Origin: a virus
Taxonomy: Duplodnaviria > Heunggongvirae > Uroviricota > Caudoviricetes
Strand: one strand, 5' to 3'
IMG/VR virus record: IMGVR_UViG_2778261214_000022
Span: 1 to 49,673 of that record
DNA length: 49,673 bases
Below are positions 2,553 through 11,032 of this stretch, in pieces (the first letter of the stretch is position 1; each line of letters begins with the position of its first letter). The notes under the pieces were generated by a model, which was given only the letters and a program-made list of their open reading frames with translations, did no database searches and had not been told where the DNA came from. Both the position numbers and the translations under genes were made by a program.

Positions 2553-2596
2553 AAAAACTATCTCACGTTGGCGGTGCATTACACCGCCAGGCTGGA

Positions 2597-3430
2597 TTAT
2601 TCTTCTGGATTATCGATTACACTGTATTCCCCGGCTATAACCGATATGTCGTCTGGATTAATTGTTTCCACCTCTTTTCCATCCATCGATACAGCACGCT
2701 GGATTTCAATAGATACCGGCAGATACTTGAACAGTTTTCGTATCACTGTCTTTTTGGCCATGTCTTCAAAGTGTTCATCCCAGATGGACGACTCCCCTTT
2801 TGACGCTGCGTTTTTTGCTGCCTTGCTGTGTGTGTCGCGAACTTTTTCTACCTGTTTGCGGGTCATGACTTCAAACTGCACTCCTCCGTCTTTCAGTTTT
2901 GCAACAGCATAGACATGGGTTATAGGGGCATCTTCGTTTTCACCGGGACGATGAACCAGTTTTTCATCAAGGCCAAGTTCATAGCTGAATTCATCACATT
3001 CACGGACAACACGAGCTGACAGACTGATGATTTGACCTGATCGACGGGCAAGGTCGATCATGCCGCGATAACCGATGATCAGCTGTACGTTCTTCTTACC
3101 GTTTTTTGCTTTTCCGTTGCCGAACGGTAGCAGATATGCATGACCGAGGGCGCTACCTGGCTCAAGTCCGAGCTGTGAACACTGTACGATGGCACCGATA
3201 AAACTCGTCGAGTCACAGTTTCTTAGTTCCGGTACTTTACGGATTTCTGTTGTGGCAATGCGGATCATGCGTTCCGCTGTCATGTGACGTGGCAGAGCTG
3301 CTGCCAGTTGCGCTTTCATTGCCGGGCTGTTAATCACGCACAGCACATCCTTATCGTTAACTGCTGCTGGTGCACGGTTTCCCTGAGTTTTTTGCAGATC
3401 GGCTTTTGCGATAGGTGGTTGCTTAGTCAT
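2597..3430 (-). CDS. recT: Recombinase RecT (single-strand annealing protein)
   Basis: 277 aa from [23 protein letters not shown]; near-identical to remembered Rac RecT; 8 nt overlap with recE. Confidence 0.95.
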
Positions 3431-6110
3431 TTGTATATTCCTTAGCCCAGCGGGGCAGTGATAACGTCTTAATAGCTGGCCATTCATCGGTATTGAGGCA
3501 GTCAGCCAGGGTTCGCAGATTGCGGTGATATTCCTGCTGGCCTGCCAGTTTTGCTTCTTCGCCCATCATGAAAATTTCAACCGGATAACGTCCGCATTCA
3601 ACTGTTGTGCTGACGGCCAGAAAAACGAAAGTTGGTTGCACACCAAACTGTGCCTCATAACCGTCACTGTAGAATGCATCCTGAACGTGATAGCGGTATT
3701 CGTAATATGCGGTTTTGAATCGCTGAATATCCGCCGTAGTTTTCACGTCCACGATCCAGTGAAATTCAGGGATAATTTTGTCCGGACGGCACCGACACAA
3801 AATTCCCGTTTCCGGATCTTCCCAGTAAATTGATGATTCAGCGTGTCCGGCGCTTTCAACAAGCCATTGCCCCAGCGGCAAAGCCATAACGCTCTGATAC
3901 ATGAGTTCAATTTTCCGGCCTTCTTCCGCAGTGATAACTGTTTTTCCTGTGCTTGCGCATTCCATCAGAAACGTTTTCTCTTCTTCTTTTCCGGCGTTTG
4001 TACGGCGGTTAAATTCAGGTGCTACGATAAAGCGGTTACTGAATTCTTCCGGTTCAAGTACACGGCAGTGGAAAGCGGTTCCTAAATCGAGCGTTTTTGT
4101 CTTTGTAGTGTCCACGGGGGCATTTTTACGCCACAAATACAGTGCCGGAGTATCAGCAATGTCATCGAGCTGAGACTTACTGACACCGGGACCCGCGTGG
4201 TAATTCTCATTCGAAATTCCGTAATAAATACCTAGCTCTATGTCTTCTACGATTACGGGATCTGCGACTTCGCCAGTTTCATCACTGCAATCGCGATGCG
4301 GATCGCTGCCAGCATTCTCATTGTGCGGATGTTCAGCGCCTTCCATTTCCTCCGGATCTTTTTCCTTAGCTTCAACCTGATTCTCTTCACCGAATGTTTC
4401 CTGGTATGTTGCGTCGCCCATCACCGCACCACAGTCAGGGCAGTTATCCCCGCCAGTCTGACCGCAGGCATTGCAGACTTTTTCCACTTCCTGTTGCGCC
4501 ACTGGTTCAGGCTGTTTCGTTTCTGGCTCGTTTTGTAACGCATTTTGGCTGTTTTGTTCCGCTTTCTGGTCGTTTTGTTCCGATTCGGGCTGGTTCTGGT
4601 TCACAGAATCGCGGGTTTCAATCCCCTTAACCCATTTCGGATCATTCGGGTCGCTAATTCCGTCAACGAACTCACCGCGTGATGCAGCAAGAAACTTATC
4701 GGCGTCAGGCTGGTTGATATTGGCAGCCTGCATAATTTTGTTTACTTCGTCAGCGGTAACTTTTACCTGATTAACCGGATCTATCTGTGCCTGAGTATCC
4801 AGCGATTGCGTGTCCTGGCGATGTTCAGTTGTATCCGGCTCCATTGCTTCAGTCGTTGCCTGTTCATCTGCCAGTGCGCCAGACGGTTGCGATTTTTCTT
4901 CATCGTTTTTTTCTTCTTCTGTTTCTTGCCCGGCAGCCAGCTCGCGGTTTATTTCTTCCAGGATATCTTTTTCCGGTGTATGTCGTGCAGCAGCGAGGGT
5001 TTCCTTGCTGGGGTTCTCGTGATCAGTTTCCGTTAAGTGGGCGTTGATATACACCTGAAGGCGTACCCTGTAGAGATAAAGTTCAGGGTGGGCGCTCCGG
5101 ATAAGTGCAAAAATAGCGGCACGGGAATAATCCAGGATACCCGGGATTGCGCGAAGTGCTGCGGACCATTCTTTGAACGGACTTTCTTTCTTCCGGACGA
5201 CTTTTTTTGCGCGACGATAAACGCTGCCCGGGATTTCATAAATATTAAAATCCATCGGAAGGGTGGCCGCTGCAATCTCCACATCCAGCGTATCGAAGGT
5301 GTGTACTAAATTCGGATTGCGATCGGTTTTGTTCCCGCCGCCAGCATTAGCACCGGAAGCCGTGCGGGTGATACGCGAAACACGATTTCCTTTCATCCAC
5401 TCTTTTGTCAGCAGACCGCGATCGGTGTAGTCGGCGTCCAGGTATGCTTCGATAAAAGAGGTTATCAGTCCCAGGTCCGAATTTACGGGGGCGGGGAAAA
5501 CTTTGTCAGTGTCTCGCACCAGTTTGTGGAGATCGCGAATTTCCAGTGGTTCGAGTTGCGCTGCTTTATTTGAGATGGCCAGCGCGGCAACGGCGGGAAG
5601 TTTTTCATCCTGTGCGTTATGTAATGCGCGCAGTTCGTCCCGCGAAACGTGTGTGATCGGTTTTTCGCTGCCGTGCTGTGCCAGCCATCGAACAGGCAGA
5701 ATCTGACCTGAAACCGGCAGGAGCATGTTCTCCTCAATCTCAGCCATGTCTTCGCCGTTGACGTTGGTATTGTCAGTGCTGGCTGGTTTATCCTGAACAG
5801 AGGGTGAGGGCGCGATAAATACCATTGTGATGCCATCTTCCCCGCCTTTTTCGTAACGGTTGCAGAATTCCGTATCAAATACGCCTTCTGGCGGGAGGTC
5901 ATTAACAACGGGCAAATTGACGCGAACAGGTTTTTTGAAGTCATCTTCATCGTATCCAGCATCGTCAATCGCAACAGCACCACGGGAGATGGCAATGGAT
6001 AATTTTTTCGTTTCAGCCCAGTAAAAACCGCCTTTAATACCGAGACGTTTTCTTACTTTGTCATTTTTTGCTTCGTAATACAGTGGGTAAACTTGTTTAT
6101 CGGTGCTCAT
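3423..6110 (-). CDS. recE: Exodeoxyribonuclease VIII RecE
   Basis: 895 aa; C-terminal nuclease domain matches remembered Rac RecE ([48 protein letters not shown]). Confidence 0.95.
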
Positions 6111-7924: not shown

Positions 7925-8386
7925 CTACTGGTTACGTTTCTTTAGTGCCAGCATGTTCTCGAAGGCTTCCTCGTAGAGCTTGTTTAGTCCACGTAGCTGG
8001 TTAAGGAGTTTGGCTTTTTCTGACGCAGGTAGAATCTCGAAGAGGTTAAGCAACTCTGCCTGTTCTTCATTGACCAGCCTCCATCCTTTGCCTGAAAAGC
8101 TATCATCATAAGTATCTGATGATCTTACATAATTCATTAAGTCTTTAAGGTCTTCTCGAATGTCCTCTGGTTTTACCTTTAACAGAGCCGCAAATTTTAG
8201 CGCAGCATCGGTATTTACCGGTATCTTGCCGTTCAGATACTGGCTAACGGTGCCTTGAGATTCGAATCCCAACAACTCAGCCGCCAGCTCTTGAGTCAGC
8301 TTCAGCTCTTTTTTTCTTGCATTCCATGCGGCTTTTAAATTCTTGCTCGCTTCTGGAGTTGCAATCACTTCGCGTGTTTTTTTCAT
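7925..8386 (-). CDS. Prophage repressor, XRE-family HTH, DicA/RacR-like, no S24 peptidase domain
   Basis: 153 aa; HTH (LTQELAAELLGFESQGTVSQYLNGK) and C-terminal region resembling DicA; divergent from cro/ydaS-like gene. Confidence 0.85.
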   Translation of the reverse strand: MKKTREVIATPEASKNLKAAWNARKKELKLTQELAAELLGFESQGTVSQYLNGKIPVNTDAALKFAALLKVKPEDIREDLKDLMNYVRSSDTYDDSFSGKGWRLVNEEQAELLNLFEILPASEKAKLLNQLRGLNKLYEEAFENMLALKKRNQ

Positions 8387-8487: not shown

Positions 8488-8769
8488 TTGGCTATGAACT
8501 TAAGAGACTATTTAAAAGAGAAACATATCACCCAGCTACAGTTTGGGAAGCTAACGGGTTTATCTCAGGTGCACGTAAGTCGAGTGCTGGGGGGCTATGA
8601 AAGATTCAGCCCTGAAAAAGCATTACGTGTTGCTGAAGTAACGAATTTCGAGGTTACACCTCATGAACTCCGGCCTGATATCTACCCGAATCCAACCGAC
8701 GGTTTACCTGTTGGATGTAAGGCTAACACACAAAATACACAGGAGTTGATTCATGAAAATCAGGCATGA
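8488..8769 (+). CDS. ydaS: YdaS-like Cro/CI-family HTH protein
   Basis: 93 aa, HTH (LTGLSQVHVSRVLGG), LRPDIYP motif; first gene rightward of repressor as in Rac racR-ydaS-ydaT. Confidence 0.75.
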   Translation: MAMNLRDYLKEKHITQLQFGKLTGLSQVHVSRVLGGYERFSPEKALRVAEVTNFEVTPHELRPDIYPNPTDGLPVGCKANTQNTQELIHENQA

Positions 8770-9175
8770 GCACATCGAATCAGTGCTGTTAGCCCTGGCA
8801 GCCGAAAAAGGGCAGGCGTGGGTCGCTAACGCAATTACTGAAGAATATCTGCGCCAGGGGGGAGGTGAATTGTCTCTGACACCAGGCAAGGACTGGAACA
8901 ATCAGCAGAACATCTATCGCCGTTGGTTAAAAGGTGAAACGGAAGCGCAAAGGGAAAAAATTCAGAAGCTGATCCCAGCAATTCTGGCAATCCTTCCGCG
9001 GGAGCTGCGTCACCGACTCTGCATCTTCGATACCCTGGAACGCCGTGCATTACTGGCGGCGCAGGAAGCGTTGAGTACGGCAATTGATGCGCATGATGAC
9101 GCAGTCCAGGCCGTTTACCGTAAAGCGCATTTCGGCGGTGGTGGAGCGTCCGACGATTCTGTTGTAGTGCATTGA
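8753..9175 (+). CDS. ydaT: YdaT-like protein
   Basis: 140 aa (MKIRHEHIESVLLALAAEKGQAWVANAITEEYLRQGGGE...); matches remembered Rac YdaT; 17 nt overlap with ydaS-like gene. Confidence 0.8.
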   Translation: MKIRHEHIESVLLALAAEKGQAWVANAITEEYLRQGGGELSLTPGKDWNNQQNIYRRWLKGETEAQREKIQKLIPAILAILPRELRHRLCIFDTLERRALLAAQEALSTAIDAHDDAVQAVYRKAHFGGGGASDDSVVVH

Positions 9176-9194
9176 TTGAATAGGGTATCCAATA

Positions 9195-9608
9195 ATGAAA
9201 ATCAAACCGTACATAAATGCCGGAAATCTTACTCCCGGCGAACTACGAGACTGGATCCTGAAACTTGCAAAAAATGCAGAAATTGCGGGTTGGGGTACAG
9301 AAACTTCGGTTCGGAAGCTTCAGAGCGCAGAACTTAGCCTGCGCTCAGTTATGGACGATTTATCCCCAAGAATTAATTTTCTGGGGTCAGAGCAAATAAT
9401 TCGTTCGGAAGGTCACTCCAGCGAAGTTGCGGAAGTTCTGAATACTCTGAGGGTAACTTTTGCTGCCGTTCGCGATATTCAACGAACCATTCTCTCATTG
9501 ATTTCTCAGCTTCAAGAAATTGATAGTCGCATTCCTGACGGGGGTCATAGAGAGCGTCTTCCAGAATGTGAAGAGCAAGGACAGGGGAAACAGATAAGGG
9601 ATCAGTAA
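9195..9608 (+). CDS. Hypothetical protein
   Basis: 137 aa ORF 20 nt after ydaT in the same direction; weak RBS; overlaps an antisense ORF. Confidence 0.45.
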   Translation: MKIKPYINAGNLTPGELRDWILKLAKNAEIAGWGTETSVRKLQSAELSLRSVMDDLSPRINFLGSEQIIRSEGHSSEVAEVLNTLRVTFAAVRDIQRTILSLISQLQEIDSRIPDGGHRERLPECEEQGQGKQIRDQ

Positions 9609-9828
9609 TACGTTTTTCACTTGCCTGGTATAGCAATCTCGCCAGCGAATCATAGCTACTGGGGCTCAGGAGAGAATCCCGTGAGTGATTTGTAAGAATC
9701 AGGTGGAAGCGGGTGAGAACTATAGCCCTGCATGTTACCAGGTTAACCATGTCGTGGTCGTGCTGGTTAATTTTGTACACAGTGCGCATGTGATTTTTAA
9801 TTTTTTGGCAAACAGCCATTAAAGACAT
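9373..9828 (-). CDS. Hypothetical protein antisense to rightward operon
   Basis: 151 aa ORF with strong GGAGG RBS 6 nt before ATG; 3-prime 236 nt overlap the plus-strand ORF 9195-9608. Confidence 0.4.
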   Translation of the reverse strand: MSLMAVCQKIKNHMRTVYKINQHDHDMVNLVTCRAIVLTRFHLILTNHSRDSLLSPSSYDSLARLLYQASEKRITDPLSVSPVLALHILEDALYDPRQECDYQFLEAEKSMREWFVEYRERQQKLPSEYSELPQLRWSDLPNELFALTPEN

Positions 9829-9907
9829 GTCGAACCTCCTTTGGTTCTGTTGATTGGGGAATCACAGATTATATCCGGAGGAAGGTTCGACACCAGATGA
9901 GGCAATT

Positions 9908-11032
9908 ATGGTTAAGGCTAAAAACATGCCAAATCCCATGCCAAAAACTAAGGCAAACAATGAGCCTTATCGCAAGGTAAAAATAACGATATGGGATGAT
10001 CCCAAATTTAGGGCGTTATCTCCTCTGCCTCCAAGTGGACAGAGTTTGTTTATTTATCTGCTGACCAGTCCATTTACCGGGATTATTCCTGGGTTGTTTA
10101 AAGCCGGGCGGGCAGCAATGGCTGAAGAGTTGGGGTGGGATATCGAAGCCTTTGACTTAGCCTTAGGCGAAGCCATGAATCTTGGCATGGTGAAAGCAGA
10201 TATCAAAGCCAGAGTTTTTTGGCTCCCGAATGCTGCGAAACACAATCCGCCAAACTCGATAAATGTCATTAAATCCTGGGCAAAGGCATTCGCTTTAATT
10301 CCTGATTGCCCTCTCAAATGGGAGGCCAGGGAATCGCTGAGAGCCGCGTCCTACGGGGTTTCTGAGGCTTTGGGGATGGCATTCGATAAGGCAATCCCTT
10401 TGCCTGAGGATAAGCCTAAGGATAAGGCTAACGCTTTGTCATGCGGTATCCAGATAACAGATAACAGATATATAAACCCCACACATAACGCGCGCGTGCG
10501 CGAGGGTGCTCCGGCCAGTGAGGCAAATGGCGTGCCGTTGCAGACAGCGGAACCTGATTACCTGGAAGGCCTGAGCGAACCCATCGGGAAATTTCCGATG
10601 ACCGATGGCTGGCATCCGTCGCCGGATTTTCGACGACGGGCTGCGCTGTGGGGCGTGGCTCTTCCTGAGCCGGAATTTACACCAGCTGAACTTGCCGCCT
10701 TCCGGGACTACTGGGCAGCGGAGGGGAAAGTTTTCACGCAGGTTCAGTGGGAGCAGAAATTCGCCCGTCACGTAAATCACGTCAGGGCGCAGGTTAAACC
10801 AGTCAGCAAGGGGGTGAGCCATGCAGCCGCACCAGGTGGCGCCGCATCACGGGCAGTTCAGGAAATTCGGGCAGCACGTGAGCAGTGGGAACGTGAAAAC
10901 GGATTTATCAGCGACGGAAACGGCGTGGAAGCTGTGGGAACTCATGGGGGAGGTTTATTCGAACCGCTGGACCCAGAAGAACGGGGCCGCACCTTCGAAG
11001 CTCTGGATTGCACAGATTGGCGCGATGACTGA
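9908..11032 (+). CDS. Replication initiation / primosomal protein (O-like position, DnaT-like C-terminal region)
   Basis: 374 aa from Met19; C-terminal region ([39 protein letters not shown]) resembles DnaT-type domain; lies upstream of P-like gene. Confidence 0.65.

Follow-up and report, generated by a model that had tools for sequence, protein, structure and literature searches.

We analysed a pair of convergent open reading frames (ORFs), orf137 on the plus strand and orf151 on the minus strand, in the IMG/VR virus record IMGVR_UViG_2778261214_000022 (49,673 nucleotides (nt); this whole stretch of DNA is called the window below). Based on sequence comparison, we conclude that both ORFs appear to be real genes under purifying selection, that about 150 of the 236 nt shared by them are constrained in both frames, and that the last ~26 codons of orf137 form a poorly conserved extension. 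The locus is the immunity-replication junction of a Rac-like lambdoid Escherichia coli prophage, and its sequence is 100% identical to that of E. coli strain C5, where the module occupies 3152320-3153000 of NZ_CP010122.1. We consider it probable that the two genes and a conserved leader in front of orf151 constitute a three-part module in Rac-like prophages, in which a real orf137 and a real orf151 share about 150 nt, the leader locks the Shine-Dalgarno (SD) sequence of orf151, and expression of the two proteins would be mutually exclusive.

A first-pass annotation of the window had described a plus ORF of 137 amino acids (aa) and a minus ORF of 151 aa with an antisense overlap of 236 nt, a GGAGG ribosome-binding site for the minus ORF and an inverted repeat at its start. 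The coordinates of the pair were reproduced, the GGAGG was located at 9839-9835, 6 nt before the ATG, and the repeat proved to be real, with perfect 10-nt arms. The same annotation had offered two explanations, a spurious ORF or an antisense-embedded gene; our evidence supports an antisense overlapping gene, and the word "embedded" has to be given up because the overlap is convergent and tail to tail. It had also asked for conservation and homology checks, and had named coding constraint in a single frame as the outcome that would speak against the overlap. When we ran these checks on both products, both frames were constrained and both families were conserved.

Coding constraint in both frames

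The overlap covers positions 9373-9608, and within it codon positions +1, +2 and +3 stand opposite -1, -3 and -2, respectively. For comparison, 51 loci were collected, which gave 36 distinct sequences of the pair (Escherichia, Salmonella, Serratia and others; single loci are cited by an L number). Both ORFs were intact in all 36 except for a degraded prophage with a double frameshift (L011), and across the intact lineages the minus ORF had 150-153 aa, the plus ORF 110-147 aa and the overlap 158-239 nt. In remote members of the minus family (26-31% identity), the same leader is still present and a plus-family ORF still overlaps the gene, by 194-272 nt. The minus gene invariably points towards the cro/ydaT operon and lies just before replication genes, which are of differing types.

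The doubly constrained segment was delimited using synonymous variation. In the minus frame, the third-position p-distance fell from 0.544 in codons 1-100 to 0.278 in codons 101-151 (Mann-Whitney p = 2.4e-8), and the fraction of different codons among codon pairs for identical amino acids was 0.50 in minus codons 1-74, 0.61 in codons 75-100 and 0.25 in codons 101-151. This drop falls exactly where the conserved core of orf137 (aa 1-111, 9195-9527) is read on the other strand, and no suppression was seen in minus codons 75-100, which lie under the variable plus tail (aa 112-137, 9528-9605). When the ratio of nonsynonymous to synonymous change (dN/dS) was estimated in the style of OLGenie, the overlap core gave 0.51 (0.30-0.82) for the plus frame and 0.31 (0.19-0.49) for the minus frame. 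The corresponding values were 0.88 (not significant) and 0.13 (0.08-0.26) in the plus tail, and 0.81 (0.59-1.12) and 0.21 (0.13-0.33) in a control, in which a fake plus frame was laid over the region that is coding on the minus strand only. Outside the overlap, the p-distances at codon positions 1, 2 and 3 were 0.397, 0.284 and 0.51 for orf151, with a nonsynonymous fraction (pN) of 0.31 against a synonymous fraction (pS) of 0.69; overall, the dN/dS of orf151 was 0.13-0.31 in the OLGenie-style estimate. For orf137, they were 0.495, 0.391 and 0.613 between distant lineages, with saturated pS, pN of ~0.4 and dN/dS of 0.23-0.73.

The absence of stop codons is decisive for the minus frame: in a simulation, the probability that it stays open, given the plus protein, was 0.007-0.2 per lineage, with a product near 5e-12. 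For the plus frame, the simulation did not reach significance in single lineages and was not used as evidence. Because a long antisense ORF by itself is not improbable, the significance of the pair rests on conservation rather than on the existence of the ORFs. The plus core at aa 60-111, which is the part inside the doubly constrained segment, carries the motif RINFLxSDQIIRSxDHS... together with the third predicted helix, and the invariant C-terminal motif LPELxWxDLPxELF, the hallmark of the minus family, is encoded by the same segment on the other strand.

Natural variants show that each gene survives without an intact partner. L053 has two copies of the plus gene. In copy 1 (3001-3363), the plus core motif is kept and only a degenerate remnant of the C-terminal motif of the minus family is found in antisense; copy 2 (3368-3748), in tandem after ydaT, is overlapped by an intact minus-family gene of 157 aa (3555-4028) with its leader. 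In L052, only 35 codons of the minus gene remain and the leader lies directly next to the plus gene, which retains RI(D/N)FLxSxQII. The opposite case is L020 (Trabulsiella guamensis, 1434-2400), in which the minus gene is intact (150 aa) and the N-terminus of the plus ORF is unrelated; this plus ORF is either a plus gene that arose by recombination or an open frame present as a by-product.

The two products were also compared with known families. The orf137 product has a full-length match to PHROG 37051 (E = 3.8e-92, residues 1-137 of 137), a family without known function, and its start is preceded by a good SD sequence in most lineages (e.g., caGGAGGaagtATG and AAGGAGG). The AlphaFold2 (AF2) model of orf137 (mean predicted local distance difference test score (pLDDT) of 74.5) has helices at residues 14-30, 35-64 and 72-112 and a disordered tail, and Foldseek against the Protein Data Bank returned generic coiled-coil matches only (E > 0.1), with no significant structural neighbour. 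The AF2 model of orf151 is all-helical but unreliable, with a pLDDT of 56 that is too poor for a fold search. No match was found for orf151 in PHROGs, for either product in Pfam, NCBIfam or PADLOC (E <= 1 for the latter two), or for ten remote minus-family members in Pfam.

Annotation pipelines disagree on the pair. RefSeq/PGAP annotates the plus ORF alone (WP_040092190.1) and leaves a gap of 509 nt, the Prodigal-type gene callers of metagenome and Logan collections call the minus ORF alone, and the GenBank phage record PP818812.1 annotates both as hypothetical proteins. As PGAP and Prodigal-type callers annotate opposite members, each database hides half of the locus. Using single-sequence searches, the minus product found distant homologues at 49-58% identity, always of 151 aa and gap-free, and the plus product found homologues at 86% identity or more only. 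The view that only the minus ORF is conserved, which these searches suggested, was rejected as a gene-calling artefact, since the plus frame is open and encodes a recognisable homologue in every distant locus. With profile searches, members of the plus family were recovered from Klebsiella, Salmonella and E. coli at 39-57% identity. The minus family proved to be small, with 23 cluster representatives, at the 50% identity level, among 1.84 billion; these are ~150-160 aa long, apart from a few shorter fragments, with identities down to 23%. PP818812.1 (L051) is named "Actinobacillus phage vB_Apl-pPE4"; its orf137 and orf151 products are 100% and 99.3% identical to those of the window, and the genes around them follow the same Rac-like layout, namely Kil, DicA-like repressor, ydaT, the pair and replication genes. 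The stated Actinobacillus host looks questionable.

A predicted hairpin leader in front of the minus gene

The inverted repeat consists of the perfect arms TGTCGAACCT (9828-9837) and AGGTTCGACA (9883-9892), which are 45 nt apart. The 10-mer of the arms occurs at these two places only in the window, where 0.08 matches are expected, and two copies were found in none of 100 shuffles. With one bulge, the pairing grows to 9827-9840 and 9879-9893. On the minus strand, GUGUCGAACCU.CCU (9893-9879) is predicted to pair with AGG.AGGUUCGACAU (9840-9827), by which the SD sequence at 9839-9835 and the A and U of the AUG would be buried. The minus-strand fold has a minimum free energy of -29.2 kcal/mol (z = -3.7), and the same fold was obtained in 7 other lineages. 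Conservation of the 65-70 nt that precede the minus ATG exceeds that of either protein, whichever replication module follows.

Selection for pairing was assessed with 36 distinct leaders. Paired cells reached 84.5%, a level attained by 0 of 500 shuffles, and slid controls gave 27-45%. The covariation score was 0.096 against 0.048 in shuffles (0/500 reach it), in an alignment that was fitted to a covariance model and hence leans towards structure. Double changes were found at 7 leader pairs, 6 of which belong to the apical helix (6 of its 9 pairs), and the diverged leader of L020 has compensatory changes in the arms (CUGA/UCAG for CGAA/UUCG). Rfam 15 contained no match to the leader; it gave chance-level hits (E > 1) elsewhere in 9100-10100 and none on 9820-9900.

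When the covariance model was used for searching, the leader was found once in the window and at 77 loci with E < 1e-8. It is present in 635 of 5426 complete E. coli genomes (~12%), at 786 places, and at least 8 unrelated leftward cargo genes stand behind it: the orf151 family, the ECs1072 family (NF033230) of CP-933P, the phrog_4753 family (92-97 aa), the MSFTFDK family (83 aa), BssS-like proteins and several singletons. As a conserved and portable element, the leader marks a hot spot for interchangeable leftward accessory genes between the immunity and replication modules, and it is an undescribed cis-element of ~12% of complete E. coli genomes, including the well-studied O157:H7 prophage CP-933P.

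In the CP-933P prophage of E. coli O157:H7 EDL933 (L184; NZ_CP008957.1, 1254644-1259717), the leader (2501-2580) precedes an ECs1072-family gene (2572-3027, plus strand) at the paaR2-paaA2-parE2 / ydaS-ydaT locus, where PGAP annotates this gene alone. In the numbering of NZ_CP008957.1, the leader lies at 1257144-1257217 and the ECs1072-family gene at 1256691-1257146. A convergent ORF (2711-3220, minus strand; 169 aa, full-length match to phrog_8304) overlaps its 3' end by 317 nt, and the N-terminus of this ORF is weakly like the plus family (hhalign E = 4e-4, probability 36%). The ECs1072 gene resembles orf151 in its slot between ydaT and the replication gene, its orientation, its length of 151 aa, the leader hairpin and the convergent overlapping ORF. 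Leader, length and position are the sole features that it has in common with the orf151 family, and it differs in sequence: orf151 gave no NF033230 hit (NCBIfam, E <= 1) and E = 22 in BLASTP against the EDL933 member. Therefore orf151 is not a member of the ECs1072 family, and the two represent different cargo behind the same leader.

Other cargo arrangements were also observed. In L066, L097 and IMG/VR loci related to them, an antisense ORF of 117-148 aa extends over nearly the entire phrog_4753 cargo gene ("MKVQAVGLFWFRD..."), with an overlap of 216-273 nt, and the 83-aa MSFTFDK cargo has no antisense partner ORF. In E. coli PapRG-04-4 (L003, 2089-2709), the same slot is occupied by an unrelated plus gene of 98 aa and a minus gene of 83 aa, which abut without overlap, and this minus gene is still behind the conserved leader (96 bits).

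Table 1. Genes, RNA elements and predicted signals at the orf137/orf151 locus of the window.
Feature	Position	Strand	Description
cI-like repressor	7925-8386	-	
ydaS / cro-like	8488-8769	+	
ydaT, CII-like	8753-9175	+	Pfam YdaT_toxin, phrog_163, PGAP; adjoins orf137 upstream
orf137 (plus family)	9195-9608	+	ATG start, 137 aa; stop 9606-9608
GC-rich hairpin	9323-9346	-	GAGCGCAG-N8-CUGCGCUC; ~27 nt beyond the stop codon of orf151; lies within the plus codons that encode the conserved SAExSLR motif
orf151 (minus family)	9373-9828	-	ATG start, 151 aa
Doubly constrained segment	9376-9528	both	minus codons 101-151 against plus codons ~60-111
Leader hairpin, ~70 nt	9827-9893	-	5' arm 9893-9879 (anti-SD GUGUCGAACCUUCCU); 3' arm 9840-9827 (AGGAGGUUCGACAU)
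Further predicted pairs of leader		-	inner 9876-9875 with 9844-9843; apical helix 9868-9860 with 9855-9846
Promoter-like site	9905-9932	-	TTGGCA-16-CATAAT, consensus scan; predicted start near 9897, the 5' edge of the leader
DnaT-like primosomal replication gene	9908-11032	+	Pfam DnaT, phrog_1408; next rightward gene; SD and start abut the leader

Expression model and competing readings

In the reading that we consider probable, orf151 would be an accessory ("moron"-type) gene that is transcribed leftward like the repressor. The leader would keep it translationally locked by pairing of the upstream anti-SD with GGAGG and the AUG, and its mRNA would appear only under repression of the early promoter. 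Once that rightward promoter becomes active, transcription through ydaS-ydaT-orf137 would meet orf151 head-on, and the rightward transcript would also provide an RNA fully complementary to the orf151 mRNA, so that collision and degradation of the duplex could shut off the leftward gene. Conversely, leftward transcription may damp leaky read-through toward the replication genes. Mutually exclusive expression is suggested by the geometry of a putatively locked leftward gene that faces the early rightward operon, and the orf137 and orf151 proteins would thus be made in different states. The GC-rich hairpin at 9323-9346 may be the 3' end of the minus mRNA, judging from its position. An equivalent GC hairpin is found at the same offset in L005, L006 (with a U-tract), L015 and L020, and not in L016, L017 and L019; no conserved intrinsic terminator was found in scans of the window and the other lineages. 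At the other end, the promoter scan of the window was weak (2 sites found against 1.2 expected).

A wider version of this model can be proposed, namely that leader and convergent overlap form a general portable expression cassette of Rac-like prophages, with interchangeable accessory genes behind one invariant SD-locking hairpin, the final gene of the early lytic operon overlapping each of them, the lytic transcript as an antisense off-switch and two proteins that are possibly functional partners. We regard this generalization as rather unlikely. If it were true, about 150 nt would have become dual-coding through long persistence of the arrangement in the orf137/orf151 family, and the partners could be, for instance, an effector with its antidote, or the sensor and the effector of a system that protects the lysogen, with their linkage enforced by the shared DNA.

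Several observations count against the module as we propose it, and they are weighed here with the alternatives on which they bear. First, the inverted repeat might act as DNA, with its arms serving as half-sites of a regulator that flank a leftward promoter and control orf151 or the replication genes; on balance, this is unlikely. The arms are essentially invariant even with unrelated cargo proteins, and such invariance suggests sequence-specific recognition. The lower stem is almost invariant and gives no covariation, and in a plain MAFFT alignment of 16 leaders covariation was not above shuffles (115/500). No equivalent sigma-70 consensus was found upstream of the leader in L005, L006, L017 and L057; as there is no consistent promoter upstream of the leader in other lineages, the 5' arm can only be presumed to belong to the minus mRNA. 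In the lineage of the window, a perfect -10 hexamer (TATAAT, 9873-9868) lies between the arms, and the apex (TTGATT-N4-AATCAC) resembles the half-sites of the YdaT-box (PMC9986795, PMC11879457). However, the -10-like hexamer lacks conservation, with GATAGC, GCTAGC and TTATCC in its place in other lineages, the YdaT-like motif is wrongly spaced and is absent from other lineages including the ydaT-encoding L053, and a spacing of 45 bp is unusual for a single operator. In addition, the apical helix keeps its pairing through double changes with several pair types, including G-U.

Second, the hairpin could be selected on the rightward RNA of the early operon, for processing, stability or attenuation before the replication genes, and its overlap with the SD of orf151 would then be secondary. 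We give this possibility the same low standing. The mirror hairpin on the rightward RNA was computed to be more stable in 14 of 16 lineages, and pairable cells amount to 88.2% on the plus strand against 84.5% on the minus strand. There are 87 juxtapositions of A and C, equivalent to G-U on the plus strand, and 54 of G-U, with one invariant terminal pair accounting for 36 of the latter; when this pair and columns 11-76 are excluded, the ratio is about 3:1. The commonest variant, at columns 11-76, is C x A in the minus RNA and G-U on the plus strand. Wobble pairs give at most a slight preference for the plus strand in strand assignment, and this strand also has a small terminator-like hairpin (GAACCUCCUUUGGUUC + UGUUGAUU). 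On the other hand, the leader is always accompanied by the start codon of a leftward cargo gene, irrespective of the next rightward gene. The minus strand is favoured in L016 and L019, no U-tract follows the long hairpin, and base composition may explain the excess of A-C.

Third, what matters might be confined to the minus gene and the first ~60 codons of orf137, with a plus frame that runs on by chance and a shared segment that codes for the minus product only. Here the evidence for our module is moderate on the plus side: the dN/dS interval of the plus core overlaps that of the control. The probability that the plus frame is open over the overlap, given the minus protein, is 0.16-0.5 per lineage and 0.29 in the lineage of the window. 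Plus codon position 2, which equals minus position 3, is the most variable position in the overlap, so the minus frame dominates, and in deeply diverged lineages the minus motif has been preserved better than that of the plus product. Between distant lineages, change in the plus tail is neutral, and the position of the plus stop moves; it is partly set by the conserved minus residues I/V74-T75 (TTA or TCA on the minus strand). Moreover, the plus frame of L020 is open over the overlap despite its unrelated N-terminus. Nevertheless, the twofold loss of minus-synonymous variation is confined to the plus core, and the plus dN/dS of the core stands below the 0.81-0.88 of control and tail. Loss or decay of the minus gene (L052 and copy 1 of L053) has left the motif RIxFLxSxQII and helix 3 in place, and AF2 residues 35-112 form one confident helical hairpin across the boundary. 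We consider chance extension of the plus frame rather unlikely.

Finally, a spurious minus ORF beside the PGAP-annotated plus ORF as sole gene, which the RefSeq annotation with its gap and the lack of PHROG, Pfam and NCBIfam hits would favour, can practically be dismissed: the conserved minus family can be traced to 23% identity, its length is fixed and its C-terminal motif invariant, its pN is well below pS outside the overlap, its frame is open against a probability product near 5e-12, and it has a strong SD at 6-nt spacing and a dedicated conserved leader.

Comparison with known systems and the gene neighbourhood

Long antisense overlaps of two real protein genes are still disputed in bacteria, where most of those reported are young ORFs inside old genes. 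The described pairs include pop/ompA, asa, ano and nog1/citC in enterohaemorrhagic E. coli and olg1/olg2 in Pseudomonas (PMC7103648, PMC6294744, PMC5960689, PMC8850804). As in these, the ORFs analysed here lie on opposite strands and share well over 90 nt (236 nt in the window, 158-272 nt over the intact lineages), annotation pipelines keep one of the two, and the evidence is of the same type, namely OLGenie-style purifying selection in two frames, which includes the shared segment. To the best of our knowledge, the young ORF of the published antisense pairs has a restricted taxonomic range and lies within an older gene that is well known. In contrast, both partners here are conserved families (to ~25-30% identity) that meet tail to tail and also occur each without the other. 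The pair is notable for the conservation depth of both partners and for the portability of the leader. With its conserved partners, a sharply bounded doubly constrained stretch and one-partner variants, it provides unusually clean comparative material. A full-text literature search found no description of the pair or the leader, with incomplete coverage, so that novelty is not proven, and no relation of AgvB and the Pas small RNAs to the leader or the pair was evident.

Three other types of systems can be compared. The oop RNA of phage lambda is a non-coding RNA of 77 nt with its own promoter and terminator, and it is antisense to the 3' end of cII. The leftward transcript expected here would similarly come from between a cII-type gene and the replication genes and would be antisense to the 3' end of a rightward early gene, an arrangement in which duplex formation could lower expression. 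Unlike oop, the leftward unit encodes a conserved ORF of 151 aa and overlaps orf137 rather than ydaT, and it does not belong to the oop type. In the prophage type I toxin-antitoxin loci txpA/RatA and bsrG/SR4 of Bacillus subtilis, the toxins are hydrophobic peptides of less than 60 aa and the antitoxin is a non-coding RNA. The likeness would lie in a prophage-borne convergent pair with a 3' overlap of 100-300 nt and one buried SD, in our case a convergent orf137/orf151 pair and an SD sequestration predicted from the fold. Different from these loci, both partners here are conserved proteins of at least 110 aa in a Gram-negative host clade, so neither a toxin of that size nor a non-coding antitoxin is found. 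SD-sequestering leaders are known from RNA thermometers (ROSE/fourU) and from the alternative structures of lambda cIII. Like these, the leader is predicted to hold the SD and start codon in a stable stem with an upstream anti-SD; unlike labile thermometers, it has a long stem with almost perfect pairing (about -27 to -29 kcal/mol), and no Rfam family matches it.

As for the neighbouring genes, orf137 follows ydaS-ydaT and precedes the replication genes, and it continues the early rightward operon defined by ydaT. In the window, a lambda-P-like gene follows the DnaT-like replication gene. The sequence TTGATTcatgaaAATCAG at 8746-8763 spans the start codon of ydaT and matches the published YdaT-box, ATGATT/TTGATT-N6-AATCAA, from Rac and CP-933P (PMC11879457, PMC9986795). 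At the leader apex, TTGATTggggAATCAC (9849-9864, plus strand) resembles YdaT-box half-sites with a spacer of 4 nt; it was considered as a further YdaT-box and rejected for its N4 instead of N6 spacing and lack of conservation across lineages, and a link to YdaT is doubtful.

The start of the replication gene is annotated differently among records. PGAP places it at ~10118 of the window (304 aa), and the GenBank record PP818812.1 uses the equivalent of ATG 9908, which has GAGG 5 nt upstream. Prodigal-type calls for homologues have 368-375 aa and lie within a few codons of the 9908 start, and the phrog_1408 match starts at residue 38 of the 392-aa replication ORF (9854-11032). Because the PP818812.1 start, the Prodigal-type lengths, the phrog_1408 match and the GAGG favour ~9908, the RefSeq start looks too far downstream. 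An ORF of 27 codons (9897-9980, plus strand) with ATG at 9897 overlaps this start in a different frame, and it stands behind the SD-like GGAGGAAGG, which comes from the plus-strand copy of the anti-SD arm. The reading frame of the replication gene is open through the leader both in the window and in CP-933P.

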